The notes beneath the pieces were generated by a model, which worked only from the letters and a program-made list of their open reading frames with translations, made no database searches and was not told the origin of the DNA. Shown here piece after piece: positions 1,621 to 62,096 of a DNA stretch of 64,000 bases. This stretch comes from Okamejei kenojei (taxonomy: Eukaryota). Where the stretch lies: positions 23,746,001 to 23,810,000 of the forward strand of contig CM069160.1 of NCBI GenBank assembly GCA_035221665.1, given 5' to 3'. A program made the translations under genes and the position numbers. Position 1 is the stretch's first letter; each line of letters opens with the position of its first letter.

Positions 1621-1647
1621 CTTTTGCGCTTTGCAACATTTTAATTT
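1621..1647 (-). CDS. Micro-exon (27 nt, phase 1-1) of minus-strand host gene: EIKMLQSAK
   Basis: Minus strand ttctattttttcatacag|AAATTAAAATGTTGCAAAGCGCAAAAG|gtaaga; same EI.. class as exons at 18675, 31314, 53085, 62061. Confidence 0.75.
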
Positions 1648-2959
1648 CTGTATGAAAAAATAGAACGGAAAATTGCTAATTAAACTTTTAATTTCATGTT
1701 GAACGAAAAATAATAGTGTAGCCTCTTGTTCAAGCTTGCCTGGGATCAATGTACTTGCTCACTAAGATAAGTATCAACTGCTAGTGTATCTAAAAAAAAC
1801 GAAGGGGGAAACAGTTTTTTTTATATATTCATCTTTGACAGTTGTCCGGAAAAATCCTGCCTACTCTCAGGTTATACATCATTATATTCTCGTATAAATC
1901 AATGTCAGCGTCGCGATGGGAGTATCACTATGAGAATATGATTCGTAGAATTATTGTAAATTAAAAATGGTTGTATTGCAGGTAAACACCAGTTACAAAT
2001 ATATTTCCATCCCGGGTACATCTCTATTCAAGACAATATATCAGACCACATGTGCTCTATACTTTATTACAACGCTTTGTGCATATCAATTACGTTTTGC
2101 TAAGTTACTAAGTAAAGAACAAAGATGTGCTATGCGGTACGGGACATCTCGAATGTAGGTAACAATGTTTATAATCACGGAAACACAATTCCAGTTGGTC
2201 GATGCGTTGTTTAATGGTGGAAACACACTAAAAAGAAACGTTTTTTGGTTATACCTGCATTTTGCAAAGCAAAAATAAAGAGTGCAAGTGGACATTAATG
2301 CCGGGGAATTAATATCGGGAATTATTGCACACTCGTGGGAGTAATCTAACCAAGATAAGTAATTTAATCTTGCGGAACATTTCAGAGCGTAAATTAGCTA
2401 CGGTCACAAAGAGAGAAGCAAGTGAGGAACGAACGTTGCAAAAATCGGAAGTCGCCAGACGTGAGCGAAATTAACATCAAAATGTCTGGTGTTGCCAATT
2501 CGCACCCAAAGAATACTGGTAGTGAAAGATAAAACAAGTAACCGGAAATGTTGGTTTACCAGGGAAAGACACAACATGCTGGAGTAACCCAGCAGGTCAA
2601 GCAGCGTCCTTGAAAAACACAGAAAGGTGATGTTTTGGGACGGGGCAATTCTTGCATTTTCTACTGATGTAACGTTTGCAGTAAATATAGCCTTGGCATT
2701 GAACGAGTTAATTTAGTCACTGCTGCGATGTAATGATTTCCATCGCAGATATAAATTTTAATGAAATTCCAAGAGAACTTTGTGGCGGCTTGCAAACAAT
2801 CACAATTGAATAGATTTTACTGCAACGATTATCTCGCATTTATCTCGTGCCTAATTTGCAGGTAATTTCATATTTTTTTCTGAGGAGACCTCGTTGTAAA
2901 TGTTTCAGTTCCATGTTCACAGCGATATAAAAAAAATGCATGAACATAATGTCAATCAC

Positions 2960-2986
2960 CTTCATCTTTTCGCCTGAGCTGCTCTT
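2960..2986 (-). CDS. Micro-exon (27 nt, phase 1-1): EEQLRRKDE
   Basis: Minus strand polypyrimidine tract ending taatgcag|AAGAGCAGCTCAGGCGAAAAGATGAAG|gtgatt; paralogous to exons at 20667, 33581, 58429. Confidence 0.8.
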
Positions 2987-5314
2987 CTGCATTAAAAAAA
3001 AGAATAGTAATTTTATCATAACAGTATAAACTGAGTTAACTGAGTTATCAACTTTTTTTCTATTAATGTACTGTATTATAATTATTCATATATGTTAGGT
3101 GATGGACTTTATTTTTTATGTTGCACTTTAATTTAAATAATAAGTTAATAATAAATCATATATATACAACGTGTCAATGCAACAACAATCGATTAAATGT
3201 GTTAATTCGAGCTAACTAACTAAGAGCCAACCGGTATATGTAAAATATCATAACTTACTCTGCATATCAATAGATTATATTTAATGTTCAAATATTCATT
3301 TCGGGCTCGTGGTGTTTTAAATATTAAATTGACGGCAGGTATTCCGAACTATTATTTTTCCTAAGGAAATGCATGTCAAATTCGAAGCAAACACGTTATG
3401 AAATCAGGAAAATGTTGGGTTCCGTTATAATATTACGGGAAAAACAGCGGAAAATGAAACCCCCGCGGTCCTAATCTGAAAATAATGTTGGGAATAATTA
3501 TTTCACGCAAAGAATTGTTGGTGTATGTAACTGGCTGCAGGAGATGTGGTAGAGGCAGGTACTACTGCAAATTCTAAGAAATGTTTAGATAGGTATATGT
3601 GTAGGGTAGGTTTGGATATATAGTGCAAAATACAGGCAAGCGCGACTAGGATAGATGGGTCAAGGTGGCCGGTGTGGGAAGGATGTGCCGAACGTCGTGT
3701 ATCCGGTAAGATTTTATGGCTCAATGTTTCTAAATGCATGAAGTGTATCAATTTGACCGAATCGTACACACGATTGCCTAATCTGAATGCATCAATTACC
3801 GACGGCTTGAAACGTTATCTCTGCGTGGATCTCCACTGATACGGGCGAGTTCGGTTTATTCCGACTGACCTTCCGTGTTCTTGTTATATCCACAACTGTT
3901 TCTATGTAAGAATGCGTCACTACCATCTACTGTCACTTCGGATCTGTCTGCATGTCTCTATCTATAGATGATTGCAAGCATGTGTCTCCCTTTAATCAGA
4001 CTGCTTAATGGGCGTCCACCTGCTCAATATATCATAATGTGGATCAATGGGGAATGAGAAAATAAAGATGGTGAACCGTTTTAAAATAATATTGCCAGAT
4101 AATATCATAATTCATTTTACCATATAATACCAAAAATGCCTCGATACGCATATGCACCTTAAAACATACGACGGGATTCCCGGTTGGCGTGATATTTACG
4201 CCTGCTACTTTTAGTCGAGATAAATTGATCCAAAAAATAACTTTTTATTTGCATGAATAATTAATGTTATTTCAGCAGTGGAACAAATCAATTGTTTACC
4301 ATTGATTCTGAACTTTTGCACGATGAGATTTTCTGATATAGCATGTAACATTTGGAACATGCTCACCAACATCCTTCTTGAAGGCCTCGAGTACATCTCC
4401 TCCTGCCAATACACAAGCATAATTACATTTTCGTGACAGATTGCGACACTAAAATTACATGTCTTAACCTGTTTTACGTGCAACTTCACGATAAGTCCAA
4501 TTTGCAATTGAAAATCACTTCAATAAACAGATACCTTCGTAAGTTTTCATTATTGGCATTATGTATATCGAAAGGCGTTTCAAGCGGCCTACCTACATGT
4601 TTAAAACTATTTTTCATACCACAACCCTCAGATAATTACAATTAAACATCTATCGACTATGATGAAGTGTTTACAGATTCGTCAACACCATTATGAACCT
4701 GTATTTTTTGTTCAAATGTATTTGAACAACATATACCATGAAATAAGGTGGGTTGTGAGACAAATTTTGCTTGCTCTCGTCAGCCACTGCGAGTCGTACA
4801 AGTTAGGATTTACGTGACTCCAAGCTCGATGGTGCGTGGTATTCTAAAAACGTGAGCAAAGGCTGCAGACTGCGCATGGAGGTCAACAACGCAACTCTTT
4901 TGCAATGCGTGGTACCACGTCCAATCTATCCTGAGCTATCAACGTTTGAATTTCAGAGTAACGGCGTGGTTTTAAAAGGGAATTCCTTGTTTTACTGGTA
5001 GAATAGAGCAACAAACCAATATGTTAATTGAAAATGATGTTCATTGTGTTTGTATCGTATCGTAAATTATCTATTTATAAATGCAGGACTCAATATACTA
5101 ACATATTTATTGAACACGCTTGGTCCAATACGTTTGGATTGTTTCTAATGTCGAATAACTGTCATGAATTTCAAGACTTTTGTGGAAATTGAAATCCCAA
5201 TCGTACCACCTTGAATGTGGAATGAGTATTTCAGTATGCATCCTTGAACACATTGTTATCATGATGGCAAACGTAAAATTAAGGTTTGTAATTTTCATCG
5301 AGTCTTTAGCTTAC

Positions 5315-5341
5315 CCGCTGGTTTAATAATGGATTTATCTT
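5315..5341 (-). CDS. Micro-exon (27 nt, phase 1-1): EDKSIIKPA
   Basis: Minus strand cctttatatttattag|AAGATAAATCCATTATTAAACCAGCGG|gtaagc; flanks homologous to exon at 29079. Confidence 0.75.
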
Positions 5342-5746
5342 CTAATAAATATAAAGGTAACGATAAATACATGTGCGCAGTAGATACTGATCGGAGTACA
5401 TTTCATTTCATGTCAGAACTCGCTCGTTTTACCCGATGATCGTGATATTATATGGACTGTTATCTGCAGCTTCCCAGTACCCTCTTGAAGAGAGAGTATC
5501 ATAATTCCTTGCCACGTATTCGAGCTGTTGGCAACACATTATTTTTTCAAATGGCTACGGTGTTTTATTTTTATTTTGTTATTTCCAAACGAAGAACGCC
5601 ATGACAGATAACGAGGATTGATGTTTATGTCGATGTTTTATTATTCAAGTCGATAGTTCAAGACTGACATGCAAATCACGGTTTTGCACACACTCACTAC
5701 AGTATAACAGGCATTCCTTCTAATCTCCATACCCTGTCAATATACA

Positions 5747-6660
5747 CTAGACAATAGACAATAGGTGCAGGAGTAGGCCATTCGCCCTTCGAGGCGGCAC
5801 CGCCATTCAAAGTGATCATGGCTGATCATCCCCAATTAGTACCCCGTTCCTGCGTTCTCACCATGTCCCCTGACTCCGCCATTTTAAGAGCCCCATCTAA
5901 CTCTATCTTGAAAGCATCGAGAGAACCTGCCCCCACTGCCCTTTGAGGCAGACAATTCCACAGACTTGCCACACTCTGTGAGAAAAAAAGTGCTTCCTCG
6001 TCTCCGTTCTAACTAGCTTCCTCCGTATTCTTAAACTGTGCCCCCTGGTTCTAGACCCACCCAACATCGGGAACATGTTTCCAGCCTCAAGCGTTTCCAA
6101 ACCATTTACAATATTACATGTTTCAATGCGATTCCCACTCATCCTTTTAAACTCCAGAGTGTACAAGCCCAGGTGATCCATTCTCCCAACATACGACAGT
6201 CACGCCATCCCGGGCATTAGCTTTGTACACCTACGCTGCACTCGCCCAATAGCAAGAATATCCTTCCTCAAATTAGGGGAACAAAACTGCACACAATACT
6301 CCAGGTGTGGTATCGCCAGAGCTCTATACAATTGCAGAAGGACCACTTTGCTCCTATATTCCATTCCTCTTGTTAAAAAGGCGAACATGACATTCGTTTT
6401 CTTCACTGCCTGCCGTACCTGCATGCTTACTTCCATGTATGAGGAACTCCAGATCCCGTTGTACTTCCCCTTTTCCCAACGTGACGCCATTTAGATAATA
6501 ATCTGCCTTCCAGTTTTTGCTACCAAAGCGGATAACCTCAAATTATCCGCATTAAACTTCATCTGCGATCCATCTGCCCACTCTCCCAAGCTGTCCAAAT
6601 CACCGTGCATACTCAAAGCATCCTCCTAACAGTTCACACTGCCACGCAGCTTGTTGTCCT
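5747..6660 (-). mobile_element. 5'-truncated CR1-clade LINE
   Basis: LQLYRALAIPHLEYCVQFCSP, TRGHSLRI, KHFFSHRV motifs; conserved CR1 3' end with short (tctattg) tail repeat. Confidence 0.9.
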
Positions 6661-6719
6661 CTCTTTGATACAGGCAGTCAGAAGTGCAGTGGTAGTAAAT
6701 TGTGCACGCAGCCGCCGAT

Positions 6720-6905
6720 ATATATTGTGCAGGAACGAACTGTAGATGCTAGTTGAAACTGAAGATAGACACGTAACTCGGCGGGTCAGAGAGCATATCT
6801 GCAGAAAAGATTACGTCATTCCACCACGATCCGAAAGGTGAATGATTCCTTTTCGCCAGAGACGCTGTCTAATCCGCTGAGTTTCTGCAGCGTTTGTCTC
6901 AATCT
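6720..6905. mobile_element. Decayed Penelope pLTR-derived inverted-repeat mini-element (paralog at about 29375-29570)
   Basis: gtaactcggcgggtcaga...ccgctgagtttctgcagc arms resemble the pLTR ends at 54657-54890 and 62962-63785. Confidence 0.55.
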
Positions 6906-7312
6906 TCGCCGATATATCCTGTCCGCCATTAACCAATCTGGTGTTGGTGGCAGTGCTCACGTTTCCATATTGCAGATCCATTTTGAACTTTTCACAAATA
7001 TAACTATATTTTAATAATTTTGAATACAAAATCTTTTCATGCATTCCATCATTTTCCTTTTAGGTTCTATTAGTTTCACAAACTTACATATCACTCTTTT
7101 CCCTAATGAGCGCATCAAGTCTACGATGTGTTTATTCATTTCTATTCCGATTATTATTTTTTTGTTCTATTACGTAATATTTACTATATTTTCCCATTTT
7201 CACAGAGCCCTTAGCTGCACAAAATTCCAGTGTCTCTGTTTTCTCTTTTCCATGGGAAAAAAGCGCAGCATTTCTTGAATTCCTTTGCCATTGTTTTACC
7301 TTCCCATTCTCC

Positions 7313-9482
7313 ATTCAGTACAACATGGCAGCGCTTGGAAGTAGGCATCATGGCAGGCTGCACAGTCTCACCCTTGGCCTTTACAATGGCCATGGAAGTC
7401 ATCATCAGGGCCTCAAAATGGGAGGTGGGTGGTGAACGAACCAGAGCTGGTCTCCGTCTGCCACCCATCAGGGCATACATGGACGATATGACAACAATAA
7501 CCACTACTGCAGCATGCACCAATCGGCTACTTGGAAAGCTGCAGGAGAACATCAAGTGGGCCCGAATGAAAATCAAACCAAGTAAGTCTCGAAGCATCTC
7601 CATAGTTTAGGGGGTGCTTAGAGACACAAGGTTCTGCATCGGTGACGACCTAATACCAACAGTGTCTGAGCAGCCAGTAAAAAGCCTGGGCAGATGGGAC
7701 AACGCAAGTCTCAAGGACAATGAGCAGGTGCAACAGCTAATGCAAGAAATTGTCAACGGCCTGGAGATCATCAATCAGACCCTACTGCCTGGGAAACTGA
7801 AGCTCTGGTGCCTACAGTTTGGACTCCTTCCTCGGACAATGTGGCCACTGACCGTTTATGAAGCTCCAATAACAACTGTGGAGAAGATGGAGCGAACCAT
7901 AACTTCATACAAGAAGAAATGGCTCGGTGTCCCACGATGTCTAACTAACATCGGCCTCTATGGCAAAGGGGTCCTGGAACTACCTCTCACTAGTCTAACA
8001 GAGGAATACAAGTGTTCCAAAGTAAGACCCAGATGACACTGAGGGACTCTAGAGACAAGACCATCAGTGCTGTTGCGCCGCCCCTAGTAACCGGCCGGAA
8101 GTGGACACCATCTGATGCAGTACAGCAAGCTTCATCAGCCCTGAGCCACAAAGACGTCGTGGGGCAAGTGCAGCAGGGAAGAGGAGGCTTTGGCCTTACG
8201 ACAAGTAAACCAACTTGGCGAAAGGCCACAACATCAGAGCGAAGGACATTGGTGGTTGAGGAGGTGCGGCGACAGGAGGAGGCCGCAAGAAGTGCAAAGT
8301 CGGTCTCGCTTGCCAAACAGGGGCAATGGATGCAGTGGGAAGGTGTGGAGCGGAGGAAGATCAGCTGGAAAGAACTATGGGAAATGAAATCAAGCAAGAT
8401 CAGCTTCATGATCAGAGCGACATACGACGTCCTTCCATCACCAAACAACCTCAATCAGTGGTACGGCGAGGATCCAACTAGTGCCCTCTGCCCAACTCCA
8501 GCGACCCTCAAACACATCATGGTAGGCTGCAAGACCAGCCTCACGCAAGGGAGATACACGTGGAGGCATAATCAGGTATTAAAATGCCTGGCAACAGCCC
8601 TTGAGAACAGGCTGTGTGCGACCAACTCCTTGCCTCCGAGAGCAAGCAACCCCTCCCACTTAAGGGCGACAACCTTTGTCCGAGAAGGACAGAAAACACC
8701 GAAACATCCTTCCACTAGATCAGAAGAAGGAAACCTATGCAGGGCCCATGACTGGAGGATGCTGGTGGACATCGGCCGACAACTAATCTTTCCACCTGAA
8801 ATTGCTTCAACCAACCTCAGGCCAGATTTGGTGTTCTGGTCCCTTTCACAGAAGACTGCTTACATCATAGAGCTCACAGTTCCATGGGAGAACTCTGTTG
8901 TGGAGGCCTATGAGCGTAAGAAGCTGCGCTACACAGAGCTTGCAGCAGAGGCAACGCAGCGTGGCTGGAACATCAACGTTTATCCAGTTGAAGTGGGATG
9001 CAGAGGATTTGTTGCGTCATTTACCATCAGACTGCTGAAGGAGCTTGGAATCCACGGTCAGGCTCTGCAGAAGACCATAAGATCACTCTCAGACGCGGCT
9101 GAAAGAAGAAGCTGTTGGATTTGGCTCAAGCGGAAAGACCCATGCTGGGCCCCAAATGCGTCATGGTGAATCTTTGAGGCAGTTTAAAACGGGACACACG
9201 CTGAGGGCTGATCATCCTGCAGCGGGCCGCCCTTGTGGAGGGTGTATAGTGATAAAAGGCCGAAACACCCAGTGCTGCAAGGGTACACTACTGATGATGT
9301 GTCCTGTGCCCAGCTGTCCTGAAGGTTACCCAGGCCAAGTTATACGTATACGTACCCCCCCCCCCGCCCCCCCCCCTGATGTTGAGCGTCCACCACTCTC
9401 AGCAATCAATGAATGTCGTGAAATGCTCCCCACCTACTGGCACAAGGGACTACTTAACATCTAGTCCTGTGTATTTAATTCT
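7313..9482 (+). mobile_element. HERO-type (R2 superfamily, restriction-like endonuclease) non-LTR retrotransposon, 5'-truncated copy 1
   Basis: GIMAGCTVSPLAF and AYMDD RT motifs; zinc knuckle region LCPTPATLKHIMVGC; RHNQVL; RPDLV..IELTVPWE..ERKKLRY RLE motifs; stop and frameshift present; 3' UTR nearly identical to 17990-18301. Confidence 0.9.
9191..9305 (+). ncRNA. Candidate permuted, pseudoknotted hammerhead ribozyme in HERO 3' UTR (copy 1)
   Basis: GGGTGT-A-TAGTG..GGCC-GAAACACCC..CACTA-CTGATGA with all helices pairable; K-turn position 2b is C here (A in copy 2). Confidence 0.65.
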
Positions 9483-12429
9483 GAAAATCTGGACTTATCC
9501 AGTGACTGCTGTGAAAGGACAGCTGACAACATGGGAAAGTCCATGTGACAGCTTGGAGAGACAGCTGACAGGAGGGAACAGACCGCAATGGGGCCGTCAT
9601 GGGCTAGCTCCCCATGACAGCAGTCTCCAACGCTGTTTCAGCTAGTTGGAGACACCCGCTAAATGCTACAAAAAGTAAATTAAATGAAATACCCCTAGAG
9701 CCTGCGAGCGGGGGCGCAAGATGGCTCACCGATTGATAACACGGTTACAGACCCAGGAACGGAAACGACCACGGACAAGGAGAGCATGGCACATGAGACA
9801 TCCACAACAGCTGCGGGACACAAACTTCAGGTGTGCATCTGTGGTTGGGAGAAAGGAACATCAATGATGGGCTTGAAGATCCACCAAGGGAGGAAAAAGT
9901 GCTTGAGAGAGCAGAGACATGGGCCTCGCATTGACCAGTACTTCCTACGAAGCAACCAGTCAAATCAGTCGAATGAAGCACAGCGACGGGACGCAAACCA
10001 AAGTTCGCAGAGCATCAGCACCCATGTCACTGAAGAGGGTGATACAAGCACAGAAATGCCGGTGGAGGAGCCCACGCAACAACTACAAAGACCTCCATTG
10101 GAGGGAAAGATCAAAGGGCATAAACCTGGAGTGAAGTGGCCCAAAGCTGTTGAAAGGAAAGAGTGGGAGACGGTCAACAGTGACCTTATACATATCTTGG
10201 AGCAACAACTGGGCACAGCAGTGGAAAAGCTTGAAAGGATGGGCAACATAATCTACAGCTATGGAGAAGAACGGTTTGGGGTGAGTAAAGGGAGAGGTGG
10301 AAAGAAGTTACCAACACCAATCAAGTCCAGGAGGCAGCAGGAGATCGAGAGGCTAATCAGAGAGAGGAGACAGTTGAAAAAGCAATGGAAAAAAGCAACT
10401 GACGCAGAGAGAGAAGGTCTCATGCTACTGCAAGAGGACATCAAGAGCCGATTGGCAACCTTGCGAAAAGCAGAGAACATGAGGAAACTTTACAAGAATA
10501 AATAACACACAAGAACACGGTTCTACAAAGACCCTTTCAAGTTCATCAAAGACCTCTTCGCAAAGGAAAAAAGTGGAACTTTGAAAACATCAAAACAAGA
10601 ATTGGAGGAACACCTGGAAAAGGCCCACCAAAACACGAAAAGGAATGAGAAGTTAGTCATCCCACATGACATCACACCTATTCAACCACCTGAATTCAAC
10701 CTGGACACCAGCCCTCCGAAATGGAAAGAGGTGGAGAACACTGTCCGGCGAGCAAGAGCAGCATCAGCTCCGGGGCCAAACGGAGTACCATACAAGCTCT
10801 ACAAGAATGCACCAGATGTGTTACGCTTTCTATGGAAGCTCATGAGGGTGGTGTGAAAGAAGCAAACAATACCTCAGGTGTGGCGAAGGGCCGGCGGCAT
10901 ACTAATACCTAAAGAAAAGGATGAATTAGACATCAGCCAATTCCGGCCAATATGTCTCCTCAACGTCGAGGGAAAAATCTTTTTCAGCATTGTATCACAA
11001 AGGCTATCCACCTATCTGGTAACAAACAAGTACATTGATACATCTGTACAGAAAGCAGGAATTCCAGGTTTTTCGGGCTGCTTGGAGCATACAAGCATGA
11101 TCTGGCACCAGATCCAAGCAGCTAAGAAGGACAAGAGAGACCTACATGTGATATTCCTCGATCTGGCCAATGTATTTGGTTCAGTTCCACATGAACTCCT
11201 TTGGGAATCTTTTGCCTTTTTCCATGTACCAGAGCTCATCACCCCACTGGTCAAGAACTATTTCCAAGACCTGCAGCTGTGCTTCACAACAGCTGAATTC
11301 AGTACAACATGGCAGCCCTTGGAAGTAGGCATCATGGCAGGCTGCACAGTCTCACCCTTGGCCTTTACAATGGCCATGGAAGTCATCATCAGGGCCTCAA
11401 AATGGGTGGTGGGCGGTGAACGAACCAGAGCTGGGCTCCGTCTGCCACCCATCAGGGCATACATGGACGATATGACAACAATAACCACTACTGCAGCATG
11501 CACCAAGCGGCTACTTGGAAAGCTGCAGGAGCACATCAAGTGGGCCCCAATGAAAATCAAACCAAGTAAGTCTCGAAGCATCTCCATAGTTAAGGGGGTG
11601 CTTAGAGACACAAGGTTCTGCATCGGTGACGACCTAATACCAACAGTGTCTGAGCAGCCAGTAAAAAGCCTGGGCAGATGGTACAACGCAAGTCTCAAGG
11701 ACAAAGGGCAGGTGCAACAGCTAAGACAAGAAATTGTCAACGGCCTGGAGATCATCAATCAGACCCTACTGCCTGGGAAACTGAAGCTCTGGTGCCTACA
11801 GTTTGGACTCCTTCCTCAGACAATGTGGCCACTGACCGTTTATGAAGCTCCAATAACAACTGTGGAGAAGATGGAGCGAACCATAACTTCATACGCGAAG
11901 AAATGGCTCGGTGTCCCACGATGTCTAATAGTAAGATTAAATGAGAACTTACCAGTTCGAAGTTTGATCTGTATTTTATGAGGAGTTACGATGAGGGATT
12001 ACGCGAAGACCCCGTCCAGCACGCATGCGCGACATTTCTTCAAAGCAGCGGTGTGGATTCACAGAAAAACACAACAATTGAAATAAATATAGTAAAGAAA
12101 AAATAAGAACTTAATTACCAGTTGATTTGTATAATAGAGGGTGGGAGCGGAGGGCACGTAATCCCTCATCGTAACTCCTCATAAAATACAGATCAAACTT
12201 CGAACTGGTAAGTTCTCATTTAATCTTACTATTTTACTTCGGAGTCACGTGAGTGACTACGTGAAGACATCAAAGCTCTGTGAATCCGAACCGTGTACCA
12301 GCTCATGCTTCACTCACTGCCTGAAGACCTTAGAGGGAGGAAGCATGTTATACAATCAACAATAACCTGTTTGTGAAAAATAAAGGTTTATTATTGATAA
12401 CAAAAAACAGAGAGCTCCCCCGGCTTAAA

Positions 12430-13415
12430 TTAAATATTAGCTACAGACTCTAAAATTCTGTCTGCAAATTTAGCAGGTTCCGCCAGCGGCTTATTATAAA
12501 ACCTTTGGAAAGTTCTTTCCGAGGACCATCCTGCTCTGGCCAGAATATGGTCCATAGGCACATCCATTCGCCTAGCCGCCGACGTAGATGAAGCCCTGGT
12601 GGAATGAGATTTGTAAACATTAGTATCGACTCCCGCGGACTTAAGCACCTGCTTGAGCCATCTTGAAATGGTTTGGCTCGTCACCTGACCATGAGGCTTC
12701 CTGTGGCTTATCCATAAGGCTTTTTCTCTCCCTCTTAAGTTGTATGTTGTGTCTATGTAATTGGCGAGATGGGTCTTGGCACACAACCGTTGGTCAGGTG
12801 AATATGCCCGGAACTCCATTACTGGAGGCGTGGTACCTGGTCTAGTTTGTTTGACCAGTCCCTGAATGTGAAATGTGATACAGTCCAATGACTCTGTCAT
12901 ATTGTCCAGCCTCAGAAGGTGGAGGGACTGTACCCTTTGAGCTGATCTAGGGCCATGAGCATGACTGATTTCAGTGTAAGTTGTTCCAGAGTGAGTGACC
13001 TGGGTGGTGTCCATCCTCTAAGGTACGTCAGTACAATGCTGACATCCCAGATCTGAGTGTACCCAGGCCTAGGGGAATTGGTGTTAAAAATGCCCCTCAT
13101 GATTTTGACCACTAGTGGATGGGACCCCAAAGTCAGTTGTCCTGCTGCTGGAACCAAATAAGCTGACAACGCACTCCTGGCTGTATTAATGGCGCTGTAG
13201 CTGAGTCCTTCCCGATGTAATCCAACCAGAAACTCCACAACACTGGTGGCTGTAGCTGTAGTGTAGGTAGTTCCTGTTTTGGTGCAATACCGTTCCCATT
13301 TTCTTATGTTGGTCAGGTATTGTCTCCTGGTGGACTCCCGGTGGGATGCGGTCATCATGTTGATGGCGTCCTCAGACAGGCCCAGGCCCAGTTGAGGTCT
13401 TTTTAGAATCTGCAA
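12430..13415 (-). pseudogene. DIRS tyrosine recombinase (frameshift near 12945)
   Basis: ORFs 12912..13415 (LSYSAINTARSALS) and 12430..13014 (YKSHSTRASSTS, AGWSSERTFQRFY catalytic H-x-x-R, W, Y). Confidence 0.9.
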
Positions 13416-16400
13416 GCCAGGAGATTGACTCTGTCATGGCACGGGTGACTAATGCCTGACACTGGGTGGATTAATAACTCTCGACTGCTGGGGAATTCCA
13501 ATGGTGTTTCAACAGCCATGTCGAGGGCCACTGGGAACCATGGCTGTGTAGGCCAGTCGGGTATTATCAAGATTCCTGAAGCGGAATCCAATTGAATCTT
13601 ACGTAATACCCGACTGATGAGGCAGAAGGGAGGAGAAGCATAAAATAACTTTTTCCCCCAATGCAGCGAGAATGCATCAATTGCTGCTGCCTCAGGGTCT
13701 GGTTCCCAAGCGACAAACGTTGGTACCTGGTGATTCAGCCTGGATGCAAATAGATCGATATCTGGTGTGCCATATTGCTTTGTAATTTCAGCAAACATTT
13801 TGGAATTTAACATCCATTCGATGTTATCATTGAATCTGCGTGACCTGGTGTCTGCCACTGTATTTTGCTTACCTGGTAGGTAAGTTGCTGAAAACCAAAT
13901 ATGTCTTTCAACACACCATTGCCAGATTAGGTTGACCAAATTGTCACACGATATCGCCTTAACTCCACCCATGTGGTTGATATAAGCCACCACAGTGGTA
14001 TTATCTAATTGCAACCGGACATGTGCATGATGCGTATTAGATGAATATGCTTTTAACCCATAAAACGCACCCAACATTTCTAAGTAGTTGATACCCCGTG
14101 TCTGTAGGCAAGATGATTCAAATTTAGTCCATCTGCCCCCTGTGCTGGATTGCATGTTAGTTGCTCCCCAGCCCAAAGCACTGGCATCCGTTTGAATGGT
14201 TAATACTGGGTTGGTGATTATTATGGGACTGGAGCTGAGCCTTACGTTCCTTGCCCACCATTGTAACTCTGGAATGGATTCAGCAGTTAAACTCATAGCT
14301 CGGTCCAAGTGACCTGAGTTTTGCTTTAGTGCATGCACTTTTGCTCTTTGCAAATTTTGATAGTGCAAAGGCCCAAATTGTACAGCTGGAAAAGCTGCTA
14401 CCATTTTGCCAATAACTCTGGCTACCTCCCGTATGGTTGGCTGATGTTTATTCATGAGTTCGTTGCATGATAGTGCCAATTCTGATGCTTTCCCCTTCGG
14501 CAGAGTTACAATCATGCGAACAGTATCAATCGTAAATCCAAGATAGTCCATGGCAGTGGACGGTGTAAAATTGGATTTATCTGGATGCATGACAAACCCC
14601 AAAGTTTCAAACAAACGTTTGGTAGCTGCTACTGCCGAAATGGCTGTCTCCAAGGTTTTCCCTACTATTAAAATGTCGTCTAAATACGCCATGACTATAT
14701 GCTTTTGTTTCCTCAATAATGCCAAGGCGGGTTTTAAGATTTTAGTGAACAGCCTTGGAGCGGAGGTTAGCACATTTGGTAAGGCTTTGAATTGCCATAG
14801 CTGTTTCATCCAGATAAATTTTAAGTATTTACGATGCTCCTTGTTTATGGGTACTGAGTAGTAGGCATCTTTTAAATCAATGCTTGCTAGAAAGTACCCT
14901 CTAGAAACCAATAGTCTGGCTGTTTCAAAAGTATCCATCTTGAAATGTATATACCTGACAGACTTGTTTAAAGTAGTTAAGTCAATGATGATGCGACGTC
15001 CACCATCTTTTTTGATTTTAGTGAAAATATTAGACACAAATTCCAATGGTTCATGTTTTGTTCTTTCAATTACACCTTTTGCTTGTAACCTCATCAGTTC
15101 AGCTTGACACTCTTGTTTCCCTTTGACTGCGAGGGTGAATACCCTTTGGGGTATATGCTGAACTGGCGGAATGTTTTTATGAACAAAGTCAATTGTGTAG
15201 CCATGAATGCTGCTGAGTATATACTTGTCATTAGTGATGGATTCCCATGCATCCAAAAACAAGTGCAATCTCCCCCCTGTTGGTATAGAGCCCCTACTGC
15301 TCATATGCTGAGAGGAACCAGACCCACCTACCTCCATGGTTATTGGTGCTTCTTCTGTCTCTTCGCTGGGCGATGAGGCGTCTGCTGGGCTGTAGAGGGT
15401 TGATGTTGATGTTGATGTTGTTGGGGGTGGCGCATTTTCCATGGGGTCCGCTCTGGGCCCTGGCTTACGGGGAATGGTTGCGGACCCCGAGCTTTCACCA
15501 GTCCCATAGTGTGGTCGACGACTGGTGGACGCCAAGGGGTACTGCCGCCTGGGTTTGTTAGGTCTGCTCGGTCCCAAACCTGCCCTCACGAGACCAATGG
15601 TCTTGGATTCTTCCTCTAGGTCTTTCACCTTTTTTGGAAGGTCTTTCCCAAAGAGCAGAATAGGAGGTTCTGAACCCGGTGTTTTGCAAAGTCCCGCAAA
15701 TTTAGGGTTGAGGGCAGGCTTGATGATTTCCTTCCGTAAATTGTTTATTTCATGTTGAGTGGTGCACAGCAGAGCTAATGTGTCTTGCTGATTTGTGGAG
15801 ATGTCCACACCATCAATGGACCGAGCATATGATGTTATTCCTGCAGTTAGCAGTTTAAGGATTTTCTGGAGCTTCAACTCCAGGTTCCTGATGTTCTGCC
15901 CCAAATGTCCCCAAATGTGGCTGTTTACAGCTGGTACATTCAATGATGTACAATTTACTGGGGCTGTATATTGTTCAAGAGCCTCATTGACCACCTGTTC
16001 TTGTAGGGGTTTTGAGTTCAGGTGGTTAATGCTGGCTGCAAGTTTCGGCTCTAACGGCCGACCCGCTTGTGGAATGGCCACGTAGCGGTTGACCACACCC
16101 AGCAGCTCTTCCTGATCCTGTACACCCTGCGTACTCCCGATATCTTCAGCCAGTGACCCCTATTCTTGACCAGCCCAGACCTGGTCGCCAATGCTGCCTT
16201 CAAAAGAAGGTGAAGCAATGGCCAGTGCCGTAAAAGGCACTGAGGGAGTGCCTGAGCTCCCTTGGCGAGTCTGCTGCTGCTCTCTCAGCAGATCTCGCAG
16301 GAGCAATTGCTCCATAAGCCGTTCCATGCGGCTTAGGCGGCTGCCTGTATCGCTCTCGAGCGGTGTGGCATCTTCATCCGAATCGTCGGACACTACCGCC

Positions 16401-16645
16401 CGGTTCTGGCTGCAGGTACCTCCAGACCGCTGCTCAGGCAGCACGAGCGGTGCTGGGCTCGGCTCGGTAGTTATACCCGCCGCCTCTTGCCCCCCCTCCA
16501 AAGAGCATTCCTCAACGGAGGACGAACGGGGGCGAGCTGCAGACTTCTTTCCTCTGGTCTTGCTCATTGTTTCTGAAAACAAGCAGACCACAGAGAAAAA
16601 GACACAAGGCCACGGTAAAACATACCTGTCGGCCCGACTTTTCAA
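13403..16645 (-). pseudogene. DIRS gag-like and RT-RNase H-methyltransferase-like polyprotein region
   Basis: IDLKDAYYSVP, YLDD, IQTDASALGWG, INYLEMLGA, DNTTVVAYIN, DLFASRLNHQ, YASPPF; upstream gag ORF 16160..16645 is in the same frame but separated by a TAG. Confidence 0.9.
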
Positions 16646-18007
16646 TTTGTAGCGGGAGCGCCTTGAACTCCCGTTCGTCGCGGGTGCACTGCATGAACGC
16701 TAATGTCGCGCATGCGTGCTGGACGGGGTCGTCACGTAGTCACTCACGTGACTCCGAAGTAAAACTAACATCGGCCTCTATGGCAAAGGGGTCCTGGAAC
16801 TACCTCTCACTAGTCTAACAGAGGAATACAAGTGTTCCAAAGTAAGACTCCAGATGACACTGAGGGACTCTAGAGACAAGACCATCAGTGCTGTTGCGCC
16901 GCCCCTAGTAACCGGCCGTAAGTGGACACCATCTGATGCAGTACAGCAAGCTTCATCAGCCCTGAGGCACAAAGACGTCGTGGGGAAAGTGCAGCAGGGA
17001 AGAGGAGGCTTTGGCCTTACGACAAGTAAACCAACTTGGCGAAAGGCCACAACATCAGAGCGGAGGACATTGGTGGTTGAGGAGGTGCGGCGACAGGAGG
17101 AGGCCGCAAGAAGTGCAAAGGCGGTCTCGCTTGCCAAACAGGGGCAATGGATGCAGTGGGAAGGTGTGGAGCGGAGGAAGATCAGCTGGAAAGAACTATG
17201 GGAAATGGAATCAAGCAAGATCAGCTTCATGATCAGAGCGACATACGACGTCCTTCCATCACCAAACAACCTCAATCAGTGGTACAGCGGGGATCCAACC
17301 TGTGCCCTCTGCCCAACTCCAGCGACCCTCAAACACACCATGGTAGGCTGCAAGACCAGCCTCACGCAAGGGAGATATACGTGGAGGCATAATCAGGTAC
17401 TAAAAAGCCTGGCAACAGCCCTTGAGAACAGGCTGTGTTCGACCAACTCCTTGCCTCCGAGAGCAAGCAACCCCTCCCACTTAAGGGCGACAACCTTTGT
17501 CCGAGAAGGACAGAAAACACCGAAACATCCTTCCACTAGATCAGAAGAAGGAAACCTATGCAGGGCCCATGACTGGAGGATGCTGGCGGACATCGGCCGA
17601 CAACTAATCTTTCCACCTGAAATTGCTTCAACCAACCTCAGGCCAGATTTGGTGTTCTGGTCCCTTTCACAGAAGACTGCTTACATCATAGAGCTCACAG
17701 TTCCATGGGAGAACTCTGTTGTGGAGGCCTATGAGCGTAAGAAGCTGCGCTACACAGAGCTTGCAGCAGAGGCAACGCAGCGTGGCTGGAACATCAACGT
17801 TTATCCAGTTGAAGTGGGATGCAGAGGATTTGTTGCGTCATCTACCATCAGACTGCTGAAGGAGCTTGGAATCCACGGTCAGGCTCTGCAGAAGACCATA
17901 AGTTCACTCTCAACGCGGCTGAAAGAAGCAGCTGTTGGATTTGGCTCAAGCGGAAAGACCCATGCTGGGCCCCAAATGCGTCATGGTGAATCTTTGAGGC
18001 AGTTTGA

Positions 18008-18128
18008 CACGGGACACACGCTGAGGGCTGATCATCCTGCAGCGGGCCGCCCTTGTGGAGGGTGTATAGTGATAAAAGGCCGAAACACCCAGTGATGCAA
18101 GGGTACACTACTGATGATGTGTCCTGTG
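18008..18128 (+). ncRNA. Candidate permuted, pseudoknotted hammerhead ribozyme with kink-turn in HERO 3' UTR (copy 2, best preserved)
   Basis: CTGATGA 18111-18117, GAAA 18082-18085, GUA triplet ending 18066; stems I, II, III plus 11-bp closing helix; K-turn CCC-AGT-GA-T / G-GA-GGG. Confidence 0.72.
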
Positions 18129-18710: not shown

Positions 18711-18779
18711 CTGTACAATAAAAATGTAAAATACAAGTTAGTATCATTAGCTATGGATAATGGAGTTCTGCATCGATCA

Positions 18780-45384: not shown

Positions 45385-48300
45385 GGCTACTTTCAACTTG
45401 GTGCTTGGGTTCAGATTGCCCAGTCAACATGGATTGTGTGGGGAACAGGACCCCACGCTCCCGTTTCCCCCTCTTTCTCTCTCCCTTATCTCTATTTTGC
45501 TCTCTCTCCCCTCTTCACTCTCTCCTCTCTTCTCTGTGTTCCTTCTCTCTCTCTCCCATCATTACTCCCCCTCCCCCTCTATCCCATCCCTCTCCCTCCC
45601 TTCCCTATCTCTCCTTTTTCTCTCTCCGCCTCTCTCCCTCCCTTCTCTCTCCATTCTCGCTCCACCCCTCCACTCTTTCTCCATTTTCTCTCTCTCCCTT
45701 CTCTCTCTCACACTCTCCCGTCCCCTCTTCTCCTCCTCCACTCTCCCTTCGCTCTCCCATTCTCTCTGTCTCTGCCCCTTCTCTCTCTCCTCCGTCTCCA
45801 CTAGCGGGAGCGTCCCACACGCACTGACCGCGATGCATCGCCATCGGACCCCAACGCCGACACCAGTGTGATACCCTCTCCGACTTCGAACAAGTGCGCT
45901 CAAATTTAAACCTCATATCTTCTTGAGGGATTGATGGAATGGATGTCATCACCGGCTAAAGCACAGGCCGTTTGGACTGGGAAATAATTTCACCATTTAT
46001 TTAACTAAACACTGGCAGCAGTCCGTGTGAAAATACAGCACGTACCAACAATGCAGGCACTGTAAAACATGCGGCCGCTGGCCCTTCCTACGGGATGGGC
46101 GTTTAACTCGGCATTAAAATTCAAAAACAGAGCTACATTATTGGAAAAACAAAAATGTTACATGCATAAATCGTTCTTACATTCGGGAACATGTCTTTTA
46201 ACTGTCATTATTTCCCTGTCCTAACGGCCTTTGCTTTAGCCGGTAATTCAATCCATTCCATCCCTCTACTCGCAAAGATGTGAGATTTCAATTTGAGCAC
46301 ACTTGCTTGAAGTCGGAGGGAGCAGGGTCACCCTGGGGTAGTGATTTTGGTCGGATGGCGGTCCATCGTGGTCAGTGACTGTGGGACGCTCTCGCCGGTG
46401 GAGTCGGAGGAGAGGGAGCAGGGAGCGGGAAAGAGAGAAGGCAGAGAAAGGGGAGAGAAGGGGAGGGGAGAGGATGAGAGAGAAGGGGGGATATAGAAGT
46501 GAGGGAGAGAGAGCAGGAGAGAGAGAAGGGGTCCCTGTTAGGTTGAAAGGAAATAGTAAAAATTGGAAAGTGCCATGGTTTTCAAGGGAAATTGGACACT
46601 TGTTTCGAAAAAAGAGAGATATCTACAATAATTATAGGAGGCATGGAGTAAATGAGGTGCTAGAGGAGTATAAAGAATGTAAAAAGAATCTTAAGAAAGA
46701 AATTAGGAAGGCTAAAAGAAGATATGAGGTTGCTTTGGCAAGAAAGGTGAAAGTAAACCCAAAGGGTTTCTACAGCTATATTAATAGCAAAAGGATAACG
46801 AGGGATAAAATTGGACCATTAGAGAACAGGAATGGACAGCTATCTGCAGAGCCAAAAGAGATGGGGGAGATATTGAACATTTTTTTTTCTTCGGTATTCA
46901 CCAAGGAGAAGGATATTGAACTCTGTGAGTTAAGGGGAAAAAGTAGAGTAGCTATGGAAACTATGAGATTCAAAGAGGAGGAAGTACTGACACTTTTGAA
47001 AAATATAAAAGTGGATAAGTCACCAGGCCCTGACAGGATATTCCCTAGGACATTGAGGGAAGTTAGTGTAGAAATAGCAGGAGCTATGACAGAAATATTT
47101 CAAATGTCATTAGAAACGGGAATAGTGCCGGAGGATTGGCGAACTGCGCATGTTGTTCCATTGTTTAAAAAGGGTTCAAAGAATAAACCTAGCAATTATA
47201 GACCTATTAGTTTGACGTCAGTGGTGGGCAAATAAATGGAAAGGATACTTAGAGATAATATATATAAGCATCTGGATAAACAGGGTCCGATCAGGAACAG
47301 TCAACATGGATTTGTGCCTGGAAGGTCATGTTTGACAAACCTTGAATTTTTTGAAGCGGTAACTAGGGAAATTAATGAGGGTAAAGCAGTGCATGTTGTC
47401 TATATGGATTTCAGTAAGGCCTTTGACAATGTTCCACATGGAAGGTTGGTTCAGAAGGTTCAATGTTTGGGTGTTAATGGCGGAGTAGCAAGATGGATTC
47501 AACAGTGGCTGAATGGGAGATGTCAGAGAGTAATGGTGGATGGCTGTTTGTCAGTTTGGAAGCCGGTGACCAGTGGGGTGCCTCAGGGATCTGTGTTGGG
47601 TCCACTGTTGTTTGTCATGTACATCAATGATCTGGATGATGGGGTGGAAAATTGGATAAGTAAGTATGCAGATGATACTAAGATAGGTGGTGTTGTGGAT
47701 AATTAAGTAGATTTTCAAAGTCTACAGAGAGATTTGGGCCATTTGGAACAGTGGGCTGAAAGATGGCAGATGGAGTTTAATGCTGATAAGTGTGAAATGC
47801 TACATCTTGGCAGGACAAATCAAAATAGGACGTACATGGTAAATGGTAGGGAATTGAGGAATGCTGTGGAACAGAGGGATCTAGGAATAACTGTGCATAG
47901 TTCCCTGAAGGTGGAATCGCATGTAGATAGGGTGGTAAAGAAAGCCTTTGGTGTGCTGACCTTTATAAATCAGAGCATTGAATATAGGAGTAGGGAAGTA
48001 ATGTTAAAATTGTACAAGGCATTGGTAAGACCAATTCTGGAGTATGGTGTACAATTTTGGTCGCCTAGTTATAGGAAGGATGTCAACAGAATAGAGAGAG
48101 TACAGAGGAGATTTACTAGAATGTTGCCAGGGTTCCAGCATCTATGTTACAGAGAAAGGTTGAACAAGTTACGTCTTTATTCTTTGGAGCGCAGAAGGTT
48201 AAGGGGGGACTTGATTGAGGTCTTTAAAATGATGAAAGGAATAGACAGAGTTGACGTGGATACGTTTTTCCCATTGAGGGTATGGAAGATTCAAACAAGA

Positions 48301-48925
48301 GGGCATTACATGAGAATTAAGGGACAGAGGTTTCGGGGTAACGTGAGGGGGAACTTCTTTACTCAGAGGGTGGTGGCTGTGTGGAATGAGCTTCCAGCAG
48401 AAGTGGTGGAAGCAGGATCGATTTTAACATTTAAGAGTAAAGTGGATAGGTATATGGACGTGAAGGGAATGGAGGGGTATGGTCTGAGTGCAGGTAGATG
48501 GGACTAGGGGAAAACAAATGGTCGGCACGGACTGGAAGGGCCGAGAGGGCCTGTTTCCGTGCTGTAATTGTTATATGGTTATATGGTTATATGGGTGAGA
48601 GAGAAGGTAGGAAGTGTGGCAGAGAGAGAGATAGTAAAGGAGAGAGGTGAGAGAGAGAGAGGGGAGGGAGTGGGGGAGAGAGAGAAAATGGGGGAGAGAG
48701 AAGGGAGGGAGAGGAGGAGAGAAGTGGGGAGCGAGAAGATGGAAGAGCGAAGATGGGAGAGGGAGTAGGAGAGAAAGCAGGGGGAGAATGAGAAGGGAGC
48801 GAGAGAGGGGGGAGAGAGGGCAGATTGGGATATAGAAAGGGAGACGGGAGCGTTGGGGGTCATTTTCCCGCACAGGCCATAGGTGGCTGCGCAATCTGAA
48901 CCTAAGCCGCTAGTTCAAAGCGGCA
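45385..48925. repeat. Diverged long inverted repeat (arms about 45385-46000 and 46200-48925 minus the CR1), including CT-rich and GA-rich low-complexity mirrors
   Basis: ccggctaaagcacaggccgtttggac vs gtcctaacggcctttgctttagccgg; gagcgtcccaca vs tgtgggacgctc; ggttcagattgc vs gcaatctgaacc. Confidence 0.8.
46530..48593 (+). mobile_element. Young 5'-truncated CR1 LINE, nearly identical to 39531-41950 but inverted
   Basis: ORF2 pieces with [11 protein letters not shown]; (gttatatg)n tail at 48570-48593; inserted in the GA-rich tract. Confidence 0.93.
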
Positions 48926-48934
48926 GAAAATGCC

Positions 48935-49760
48935 TTCAGTTGTTTGGCTTGACCTGCCCTGCGCTTGAAACTGCAATGGCAATGGAAATGAAATGAAAAT
49001 ACTACCAGCTATATCGCCTCCCTGCGCTTGAAACTGCAATGGCAAACGAGGTGAAACGAAATTGCAGTGAACTGTTAGAAATTAGGTGCAGGAGTAGGCC
49101 ATTCAGCCCCTCGGTTAGCTATGTGCTTGAAACTGCATTGGCAATTGAGTGAAATGAAAATACAATCTGTTCGGACTGCCATGTGCTTCAAACAGCAATG
49201 GCAATTAAAATTTAGTGAAAATACAATTAGCACTTTGGCCTGCTTTGTGTTGAAACAGCAATGGCAATGGAAGTTAAATGAAAATTAATTGAGCTCTTCG
49301 TCCTGCCCTGTGCTTGAAACTGCAATGGCAAGGGAAATGAAAATGCAGTGAGCTGTTCGGCCTGCCCTGTGCTTGAAACAGCTATGGTAATGGAACTTAA
49401 ATGAAAAAGCATCAGCTATTTGGCTTGGCCTGCCATGTGCTAGGAACTGCAATGGTAATGGAAATGAAATGCAATTACAACCAGCTGTTTGCCTGCCCTG
49501 TTGCTTGTAATGCCTGCCCGGCAATGGCAATGGAAATGAAATGAAAATGGAATCAGCTGTTTGGTCTGCCCTGTACTTGAAACTGCAATGGCAATGGAAG
49601 TGAAATGAAAATACAATGAACTGTTCGGCCTGCCCGTTGCTTGTAACTACAATGGCAATGAAAGTGCAATGAAAATGCAGTTAGCTGTTCGGCCTGCTCT
49701 GTGATTGAAACTGCAATGGAGATGGAAATTAATTGAAATGTGTTGTTTGGCCTGCCTGTA
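48935..49760. repeat. Minisatellite, unit about 60 bp, about 13 diverged copies
   Basis: Unit ctgttcggcctgccctgtgcttgaaactgcaatggcaatggaaatgaaatgaaaat.. repeated head-to-tail without unique spacers. Confidence 0.88.
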
Positions 49761-50837: not shown

Positions 50838-50873
50838 CTGTGTCCTCCGTGGGTGTACTAAAACTCTCTGTAT
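50838..50873 (-). CDS. Micro-exon (36 nt, phase 1-1): (N/D)TESFSTPTEDT
   Basis: Minus strand tactttccggtcttcag|ATACAGAGAGTTTTAGTACACCCACGGAGGACACAG|gtaaga. Confidence 0.72.
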
Positions 50874-51886: not shown

Positions 51887-51916
51887 TTCGAGGTCTCCTG
51901 AATGACTTCTTGTCTT
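51887..51916 (-). CDS. Micro-exon (30 nt, phase 1-1): EDKKSFRRPR
   Basis: Minus strand ctctttttatgcgacttcag|AAGACAAGAAGTCATTCAGGAGACCTCGAA|gtaatt; ED.. linker class like 5315 and 29079; weaker donor. Confidence 0.62.
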
Positions 51917-53084: not shown

Positions 53085-53111
53085 CAAGTTGTTTGCGAAG
53101 ATATCTAATTT
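53085..53111 (-). CDS. Micro-exon (27 nt, phase 1-1): EIRYLRKQL
   Basis: Minus strand ttttgtatttctccttag|AAATTAGATATCTTCGCAAACAACTTG|gtaatg. Confidence 0.78.
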
Positions 53112-53129
53112 CTAAGGAGAAATACAAAA

Positions 53130-58428: not shown

Positions 58429-58455
58429 CTTCATCCTTCAGACGTAAAAGCACCT
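58429..58455 (-). CDS. Micro-exon (27 nt, phase 1-1): (E/Q)VLLRLKDE
   Basis: Minus strand tctctccgtttttccacag|AGGTGCTTTTACGTCTGAAGGATGAAG|gtatca; ends KDE like 2960 and 33581. Confidence 0.8.
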
Positions 58456-60127: not shown

Positions 60128-60445
60128 GGAAACATAGAAAGATAGAAAATACGTGTAGCAGTAGGCCATTCGACCCCTCGAGCCTGCACCGCCATTCAAT
60201 ATGATCATGGCTGATCATCCAACTCAGTATCCCTTCTTCTGTCTTCTCTCCATACCCCCTGATCCCTTTAGCCAGAAGGGCCAGATCTAACTCCCTCTTA
60301 AATATAGCCAATTAACTGGCCTCAACTACCTTCTGTGGCACAGAATTCCAGAGATTCACCACTCTCTGTGTGAAAAATGTTTTTCTCATCTCGGTCATAA
60401 AAGATTTCCGCCTTATCCTTAAACTGTGATCCCTTGTCCTGGACG
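60128..60445 (-). mobile_element. CR1 3' end / CR1-tailed SINE fragment
   Basis: gaaacatagaaagatag tail, gtaggccattcgacccctcgagcctgcaccgccattcaat. Confidence 0.8.
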
Positions 60446-61275
60446 TGACCACTTGTCCTGGAAGAGTCACTGTGGTGGATGTTTATGTTAAAATGTATTT
60501 GGTGTGTTTGGTAGCTTGGCATTGGTATTAATGTATGGCAAATCAAATCCCTGACATGTTACGAAATATACTTAGCTAATAAAGTATGAATATGATTATG
60601 ATTATGACAAAATTAAATTTCATTTCTTGGAGCAAGCAGGACATATCCGGATTGGACTAATGAAGTAAATGTCACAAGACAATGTTTAATTGTAATCTCG
60701 GTGCAGGCTCGAAGGGCTGAATGGCCTACTCCTGCACCTAATTTCTATGTTTCTATGTTTCTATCTAATTGTCGCTTGTATTTCGTGGTGGCTGAAAACA
60801 ATGCGTCAACGTCATTGCCGTTGAACATGGCTGCTCTGGGCTCTGCTGAGAGACCTGCCACCGTAATGTTAGAATAACAGATATGAGCTCATGAAACGTC
60901 AAAATAGGCTGCACATTGCCGCAGTTTAGCTGGCTTGGAAGTCGATAAAATATCACGAATATCTCTAATAATGGGCGATGTGCAAAAAGCACAAACCGTT
61001 TTTTTTCAGCAAATAACACAAATGTAAATACTTAACATTTCAAGTATTCCATATTGAATTCAACCCACCACAAAGTGAGCATTTCAAATGACTGAAACCG
61101 TGATGTCACTGATTCGAAAGTAAAAAGTGATCAAAATGCAGTGACGTTAAATCGGATTGCAAACATCCTTATGAATATATTTATAATAAATAATGCTGTC
61201 TTCCGATTTAAATTCGCTACATTTCGTCTTCGCTTATATTCATATTCGAATAATACATATTTTTATTTCGCTTAC

Positions 61276-61308
61276 GTTCCTTTGAATTTGTATACCTCTC
61301 AAGATTAC
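61276..61308 (-). CDS. Possible additional micro-exon (33 nt, phase 1-1): GNLERYTNSKE
   Basis: Good donor aac|gtaagc, open in phase 1, sits where a linker exon is expected, but acceptor gcaggatatag lacks a polypyrimidine tract. Confidence 0.3.
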
Positions 61309-62060
61309 CTATATCCTGCATTTTGTGTAATGTCCAATAGAAGATCATATAGTCCCAGAATTTACGATGATTTATCCCCGGAGAATGTCTGCGCGCAATG
61401 GTTTATGAATACTATGATCTTGTTAGAGGCACTTTTAGACATGCTACATACAGCGCCATATAGCAAAAGACTTTCAGGGCATATCTAAAATGCCTCGATA
61501 TCCCCATTTGTGTCGCTATTCCTGCTTCACATAAAAGCCCGTCAACAAATCTTTGTGGATTTTGGAAGCCTCGTAAATAAAGCTCGCCGGGCTATTGAAA
61601 AGGGTACGCAGGGCTTTTTCATATAGACCTCGGACCGTAGTTTGAATGGACGATATGGCTGTGCAATAATTCTTGATACGTATCCTTCGCAAAATTAATT
61701 GAAAAATTCTTACGAAATATGGAGAGAAAATTCCTACAGCTTTAAATGTGGGAAAATACGTTGTGTACCTTAAGTTTCCCGATTTTTTTCTAACAGAGGG
61801 AGTCAATTGAACTGCTATATACAATTGTTACTGTTATTCAATTTCATCTTTCAAACATGACAACATTATTTATCGTTAGGTCGTATACTGTGCAAATACT
61901 GTAGGGCATGTTTGAAGTTGATGTTGACGTATAGCCCTCGAATGCCACCTGTTATACTTGATTTCCGGAGTCAAAATGGTCCATAATATATCGTATCTGA
62001 ATTAATGGATTTGGTTCCCTACATTCACGCTCCTACAAACAATTGATAAAAATGTCTTAC

Positions 62061-62096
62061 CGACATCTTTGCGAATTACTTGTATTTGTTCTATTT
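62061..62096 (-). CDS. Micro-exon (36 nt, phase 1-1): EIEQIQVIRKDV
   Basis: Minus strand cttacatttgtttttag|AAATAGAACAAATACAAGTAATTCGCAAAGATGTCG|gtaaga. Confidence 0.75.

Follow-up and report, generated by a model that had tools for sequence, protein, structure and literature searches.

The window analysed here is a stretch of 64,000 nt from Okamejei kenojei (GCA_035221665.1, contig CM069160.1, called C30 below, positions 23,746,001-23,810,000), and all of it (1-64,000) lies inside one minus-strand gene, gene A, which extends over ~435 kb and consists of ~115 phase-1 micro-exons of 15-36 nt. We are highly confident that the short segments seen in the window are conserved micro-exons of a real gene with this structure. 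The first-pass annotation had proposed, from the window by itself, a single minus-strand gene of symmetric phase-1 micro-exons with heptad repeats; this proposal was supported, and both ends of the gene were located beyond the window. The best explanation overall, which we consider probable on balance, joins a conserved micro-exon gene for a rod-like protein with a role of that rod as a partner of proteins ending in a B30.2 domain. The sequence examined covered 2 Mb around the window and related loci, with the gene cluster sampled across ~2.5 Mb of C30. Coordinates are those of the window extended past its edges (contig position = 23,746,000 + window coordinate), negative to its left and >64,000 to its right. 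Rod-type copies of gene A are named B, E and F, and D is a sister gene with a B30.2 end.

Thirteen minus-strand segments of 24-36 nt had been reported in the window, and all were found to have AG and GT ends, lengths in multiples of three and no stop in phase 1, with a sum of 387 nt. The earlier count of at least 13 exons held, the window containing 14, separated by introns of 0.9-17 kb. A de novo scan with generic splice tables recovered 11 of the 13, a profile pass added the 12th and a paralog exon the 13th (53111-53085). Among charged candidates of 24-36 nt, with the charge and length filter chosen after the exons were seen, the generic scan returned 12 on the minus strand and one on the plus strand, compared to a mean of 1.3 and a maximum of 4 in 40 Markov-simulated windows. 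Same-length counterparts with intact AG and GT were present in at least one of three paralogs for 11 of the 13 exons, and exons 20693 and 1647 had no such counterpart in this three-paralog test. Sequence with at least five similar stretches in the surrounding 1.66 Mb makes up 35% of the window, and candidate exons at 60365, 40779 and 13887 were rejected as repeat-derived (133, 27 and 13 other matches, respectively).

The first exon of the window in transcript order (62,061-62,096; 36 nt, phase 1-1, ~residue 758 of the gene model) has a counterpart in paralog F and corresponds to residue 153 of an electric-ray homolog described below, and the second (58,429-58,455; 27 nt), also present in paralog F, corresponds to residue 165. 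The exon at 53,085-53,111 (27 nt; paralogs E and F) is ungapped in the electric-ray protein. Four Pro-containing linker exons follow at intervals, at 51,887-51,916 (30 nt; paralogs B and E), 50,838-50,873 (36 nt, Ser/Thr/Pro linker; paralogs B and E), 29,079-29,102 (24 nt, Pro/Cys linker; paralog B) and 5,315-5,341 (27 nt; paralog E). The exons at 33,581-33,607 (27 nt) and 31,314-31,349 (36 nt) are each found in paralogs B, E and F, and the exon at 18,675-18,710 (36 nt) in paralogs E and F. A weak acceptor marks the exon at 20,667-20,693 (27 nt), for which a 24-nt form 3 nt downstream scores too and no paralog match occurs at the exact offset. The exon missed by the first-pass annotation (4,367-4,402; 36 nt) is collinear in paralog F and lies outside repeats, the exon at 2,960-2,986 (27 nt) is found in paralog F, and the last exon (1,621-1,647; 27 nt, ~residue 890 of the model) has strong splice sites and a paralog counterpart by position only.

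Heptad spacing, previously read from the window exons, was confirmed across the gene: a hydrophobic residue occupies codon 4 in 71% of the 49 exons of 27 nt, and codons 2, 5 and 9 in 80, 82 and 75% of the 40 exons of 36 nt. A cycle of three exon classes, also described from the window, is present locally but does not extend gene-wide by the list of exon lengths. The suggestion that any exon could be skipped without a frameshift stands for the reading frame but not for the coiled coil, where steps of 9 or 12 residues shift the heptad register. Only a 9-residue and a 12-residue exon taken together (27 + 36 nt, 21 residues, which would make three heptads) preserve the register, and this is the commonest sum between neighbours (48 of 114 neighbouring exon pairs).

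The gene continues to the right of the window for up to 272 kb, through ~75 further micro-exons, the exon with the start codon and a first exon that is likely non-coding; to the left, up to 99 kb, lie ~25 micro-exons and a terminal stop exon. The ends were located by comparison with copy B, a tandem copy of A at ~-155,000 to -541,000. The 5' end comprises a TATA-like box at ~336,190, accompanied by a short exon (donor 336,098) that is likely non-coding, and a start exon at ~328,104-327,989, which contains two ATGs in frame, has a donor in phase 1 and is present in three copies in the genome. The 3' end consists of a 23-nt exon at -96,723, closed by a stop, and then a terminal exon from -99,091; the latter reads two full codons before a stop of its own that is conserved among A, B and F. 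The curated model counts 115 micro-exons and runs for 1,138 codons (~1,140 aa) with no internal stop, and the window accounts for residues ~758-898. Micro-exons supply ~97% of the coding sequence of the model, chiefly as exons of 27 nt (49), 36 nt (40) and 18 nt (13), while 21-nt exons number 2 of 108. Two membrane-like open frames in the region, at ~148-150 kb and 377.6 kb, had no exon support from donor sites or paralogs; the former is a duplicated stretch, read as a repeat, and the latter has no Pfam support.

Comparison between copies A and B, which align over 164 kb at 78% identity in introns, was used to measure constraint on 57 exons of A that were called on their own score and lie in aligned blocks. 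The acceptor AG was kept in B for 53 of the 57 (background 66% of 8,390) and the donor GT for 55 (background 63% of 8,645). Exon length was equal in 52, differed by a multiple of three in 2 and was frameshifted in 3, with no stops in the 52, and the substitution rates at synonymous and non-synonymous sites were 0.26 and 0.14 (dS and dN; dN/dS 0.54). Dead exons provided an internal control: immediately upstream of A, what remains of the last exons of a sister gene shows loss of splice sites or of frame. Between copies of the gene, frame and splice sites are conserved. These figures also bear on whether gene A is a duplicate that was silenced recently or is decaying, with exons that look intact only because of its youth. 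A stop in the 23-nt penultimate exon, the decayed D-type exons upstream, the loss of sites in B and a knowledge of gene A splicing that comes only through homolog models would all suit a silenced copy, which we nevertheless find very unlikely: the introns are 22% diverged from B while splice sites are kept at 93-96% against a background of 63-66%, same-length exons contain no stops, dN is below dS and the model stays open over 1,138 codons.

Among 1.84 billion representatives searched, five clusters matched at E<=0.001, from an electric ray, little skate (2) and two catsharks, none with an Ig, RING or B-box domain. The RefSeq homologs (XP_069775418-428 and XP_069775384-390 from Narcine bancroftii; XP_055520636.1 and XP_055520639.1 from Leucoraja erinacea; XP_072329362.1 and XP_038671246.1 from Scyliorhinus) show the same exon-sized blocks as gene A in the same order, but are shorter (213-597 aa). 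Exons 64243, 62096, 58455 and 53111, three of them in the window, align ungapped with the electric-ray protein XP_069775418 at 19 of 38 residues, a better score than all 23 other orders of the four, and a seven-exon block, minus two A exons absent from the ray, matches at 36 of 68 residues. The final 22 exons predicted for F align ungapped with little-skate XP_055520636.1 (188 of 207 identities) and stop at the C-terminus of that protein; this validates the calling of exons and an end free of domains. RefSeq has named these proteins automatically as golgin-like, trichohyalin-like, CLIP1-like, TAX1BP1-like, A33-like or uncharacterized. We rejected golgin, trichohyalin and CLIP1 identities, there being no Pfam match above cut-off and homolog clusters only in sharks, rays and skates.

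Exon-sized in-frame variation, expected from symmetric exons, is present among the isoforms of the electric-ray homologs in blocks of 6-23 residues. The rod-only electric-ray gene has nine isoform sequences with internal gaps of 8, 8, 11, 12 and 23 residues, two of them with a changed junction residue. A second gene, that of XP_069775385, has five isoforms made up of coiled coil and PRY/SPRY only, two of which are without 6 or 9 internal residues. We take these RefSeq isoforms to rest on RNA-seq. Three same-species runs gave coverage on repeats only across window positions 1400-21000 and are possibly DNA, so they provide no evidence either way on the splicing of gene A.

The first-pass annotation had raised butyrophilin and chicken BG cytoplasmic tails as a possible family for these exons. 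With both ends of gene A found and no Ig, transmembrane or B30.2 exon among its exons, gene A is neither a butyrophilin nor a BG receptor, and its end is a short stop exon with no B30.2. Phase-1 heptad micro-exons and linkage with the major histocompatibility complex (MHC) do resemble BTN and BG genes, and the B30.2 of D is nearest to BTN3A1 among solved structures, so that the exons could be imagined as the tail of such a receptor with Ig and membrane exons further upstream. Against this, both the start-codon exon and the first exon, which is promoter-like, are conserved across three copies, the model has no hydrophobic segment that could serve as signal peptide or membrane span (highest 19-residue hydropathy 0.71) and no Ig, RING or B-box domain occurs in the five shark, ray and skate homolog clusters. 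Upstream of A and D, 119 open frames were at least 80 aa long; none of them matched an Ig, RING or B-box family, and the matches above cut-off were transposon domains; none of the best 150 V-set matches lay near the cluster. The receptor-tail interpretation is largely refuted, and we give it hardly any credence. A type II C-type lectin neck was also considered and rejected, with no Lectin_C match near the cluster and no motif.

Gene A belongs to a cluster of at least six related genes, with four rod-type copies (A, B, E and F) and two sister genes that end in a B30.2/SPRY exon. A scan of 1.66 Mb with the trained model, a partly circular exercise, gave 289 sense and 11 antisense calls arranged in blocks with near-empty gaps between them. 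Copy E lies at 531,000 to at least 861,000 on the plus strand and copy F occupies C30 22.12-22.22 Mb, or more; the rod-type copies include tandem and inverted ones. Gene D (384,000-490,000, plus strand) consists of related micro-exons and a last exon of 172 codons (489,623-490,143), whose SPRY domain (E 7.9e-13) has BTN3A1 as its best PDB match (86 bits, compared to 75 for TRIM58). No other B30.2 exon occurs in the 1.66 Mb. Another gene of the D type has its end at C30 22.295 Mb (71% identity). The B30.2 exon of D matches electric-ray XP_069775385 at 64%, and when the D micro-exons are mapped on that protein one residue separates neighbours, as split codons require. The rod-only and B30.2 types have exon-encoded blocks in common (E 8.7e-9), and upstream of A, E and F, on the strand of each, there is sequence of the D type; together these suggest duplication as a pair. 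A family link to B30.2 proteins exists through the sister genes; gene A itself has no B30.2.

The rod genes might instead be alternative upstream modules of one giant locus, spliced to a distant shared B30.2 exon. All exons are in phase 1 and a same-strand B30.2 exon does lie 1.45 Mb downstream, but A, B and F each have their own conserved stop exon, matched by the little-skate model, and copy F lies downstream of that B30.2 exon; we regard this arrangement as extremely improbable. Several further features of the cluster were observed. Decayed copies of D's last four micro-exons lie directly upstream of A (~337,800-347,550, minus strand), without a B30.2 exon. Between A and D, at 355,000-358,500, is a retroelement with reverse transcriptase and tyrosine-recombinase frames, presumably DIRS-like. 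Beyond B, at -560,000 to -800,000, there are 44 further minus-strand micro-exon calls, more divergent, with a partial copy of B's 5' exons at -560,000 to -567,000. Gene D has a local expansion of ~seven similar 27+36-nt pairs (438,800-465,300, plus strand), with no matching repeat in the electric-ray ortholog.

All 15 of the MHC class I matches fall on C30, at 1.5-8.5 Mb, as do most of the best 150 SPRY matches. A search for MHC class II beta found nothing and is uninformative. On contig C24, at 16.43-16.47 and 18.48-18.59 Mb, there are three B30.2 exons with 38-39% identity to that of D, two of them with candidate 24-27-nt phase-1 micro-exons upstream, which suggests older family members on another chromosome. 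For the B30.2-type ray protein, the ESM Atlas returned SPRY clusters, among them two from chordates, 1,277 and 1,579 aa long and with SPRY in every member, which may be long coiled-coil-B30.2 counterparts in other lineages.

Lys, Glu and Asp make up 44% of the gene A model, and its hydrophobic residues recur with a period of 3.55 (power 3.0 compared to <=1.33 in 50 shuffles). The periodicity points to coiled-coil pairing and the lack of a hydrophobic segment to a cytosolic product, both as predictions. The predicted fold of an electric-ray homolog contains long helices only (single sequence, pLDDT 64); a two-copy complex prediction for residues 100-441 of the electric-ray rod scored 0.02, gave no verdict and was not used. 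Pro-containing linker exons would split the rod into segments. Skipping of a single exon shifts the heptad register, and splicing would therefore be expected to alter both the length of the rod and its pairing surface; rod length is likely varied by exon skipping. The rods may have arisen as exons were duplicated repeatedly and the B30.2 exon was lost. The product of gene A would act within the cell, as a partner or scaffold of variable length for coiled-coil-B30.2 proteins from the same cluster, and this predicted role alongside the B30.2 sisters is one that we put forward tentatively, as plausible but short of probable.

The same properties could describe a stand-alone cytoskeletal protein, similar to zipper protein or tropomyosin, that works in a specialised kind of tissue, for instance epithelium or germ cells, and has no tie to the B30.2 sisters. 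Long helices only, a composition of nearly half Lys, Glu and Asp and the lack of a ligand-binding domain all agree with this, and a soluble BG tail, the 'zipper protein', regulates brush-border actin-myosin (PMC4046983, PMC5938342). Copy-number turnover, fast divergence and B30.2 neighbours on the MHC chromosome look more immune in character, and we judge a purely cytoskeletal rod to be rather unlikely.

Several observations weigh against the interpretation of gene A as a conserved rod gene with B30.2 partners. Splicing of gene A itself is inferred, through RefSeq models from other species, and the exon count is approximate because the model is a hand-curated prediction: from 115 rows, 7 repeat-derived ones were dropped, one was swapped for a 27-nt form and 7 exons were added by hand. 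The strand bias of the exon array (~326,000 to -96,700; 91 sense compared to 2 antisense calls in 428 kb, with none in the 73-kb gap behind) speaks for the gene but is a partly circular count, the very exons being scored having served to train the model. The dN/dS value indicates moderate constraint only, 3 of the 57 mapped exons are frameshifted in B, and copy B is without the upstream ATG and at least one acceptor. The penultimate exon differs in length between copies (23 nt with a stop in A, 22 nt in B, 24 nt in F), and the first coding exon has no homolog among the longer proteins and no Pfam match. The N-terminus of the electric-ray rod is mildly hydrophobic in eight of nine isoforms (hydropathy 1.28). 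Finally, ~15 Mb separate the window from the nearest MHC class I match, which makes linkage by itself a poor guide to function.

A broader reading would see in the cluster an elasmobranch micro-exon system on the MHC chromosome, in which soluble B30.2 sensor heads and headless rods are built from 9- and 12-residue modules that number in the hundreds and can be skipped, and splicing sets length, register and partners. This is speculative, and we think it unlikely in so complete a form. Such a system may be a preserved free-standing form of the heptad-B30.2 tail that in butyrophilin and BG proteins follows a membrane anchor.

Two other features of the window were noted. Its longest intron contains a ~2-kb inverted repeat (39,543-41,603 and 46,537-48,594; 97-98% identity), which its motifs suggest to be two recent copies of a LINE-like fragment, and a degenerate 64-nt tandem array of ~10 copies lies at 48,900-49,740.

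Gene A and its relatives are a real, conserved elasmobranch gene family and a variant of the heptad micro-exon design. The family is apparently undescribed, no description having been found in a literature search whose coverage stopped short of subscription journals and supplements. A possible link to mammalian TSBP1/C6orf10 drew no support from that search. Several hundred micro-exons spread over megabases of an MHC chromosome escape annotation based on open reading frames, and RefSeq files them under unrelated names. They represent a second vertebrate design, with 9+12 residues per three heptads and no membrane anchor, beside the tails of BG and butyrophilin proteins. The family makes testable the role of long polymorphic heptad tails, as well as the pairing of orphan B30.2 proteins with such tails, a possibility raised for BG in PMC8813856.

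Among known systems, the micro-exon genes (MEGs) of schistosomes are alike in that most of their coding sequence lies in tiny symmetric exons that permit near-identical variants (PMC4350168). Their products occur in flatworm secretions and glands, whereas that of gene A is a predicted cytosolic coiled coil, and no homology is implied. The TRIM proteins are characterised by RING and B-box domains, and the butyrophilins by a membrane segment and Ig domains together with B30.2 and only a small number of heptads (PMC8813856, PMC12841164). A cytosolic coiled coil followed by PRY/SPRY, the likeness to TRIM-B30.2 proteins, is found in the D type only, and C30 is dense in SPRY exons. Unlike TRIM genes, D has no RING or B-box in its ray ortholog or upstream frames, and its coiled coil is split into micro-exons. 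Butyrophilins likewise have heptad repeats followed by B30.2, as does D (PMC8813856, PMC12841164), and gene A too has heptad repeats from small exons; however, neither the rod nor the D type has IgV, IgC or a membrane segment, and gene A has no B30.2 and a far longer heptad tract.

The closest comparison is with chicken BG and zipper protein. BG tails are encoded by 13-36 exons of 21 nt (sometimes 18 or 24) behind a signal peptide, Ig-V and membrane exons (PMC4046983, PMC5938342). Like BG, gene A has a long heptad tract, many small exons with split codons, copy-number variation, a place on the MHC chromosome and no B30.2, and a soluble tail-only product is known for BG; membership of a multi-copy family on the MHC chromosome was seen for gene A between copies in one genome. 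Unlike BG, gene A has ~115 exons mostly of 27 and 36 nt, a pair of which makes three heptads, and no ectodomain. Gene A lacks the defining features of BTN, BG and TRIM genes but is built like a BG tail on its own.

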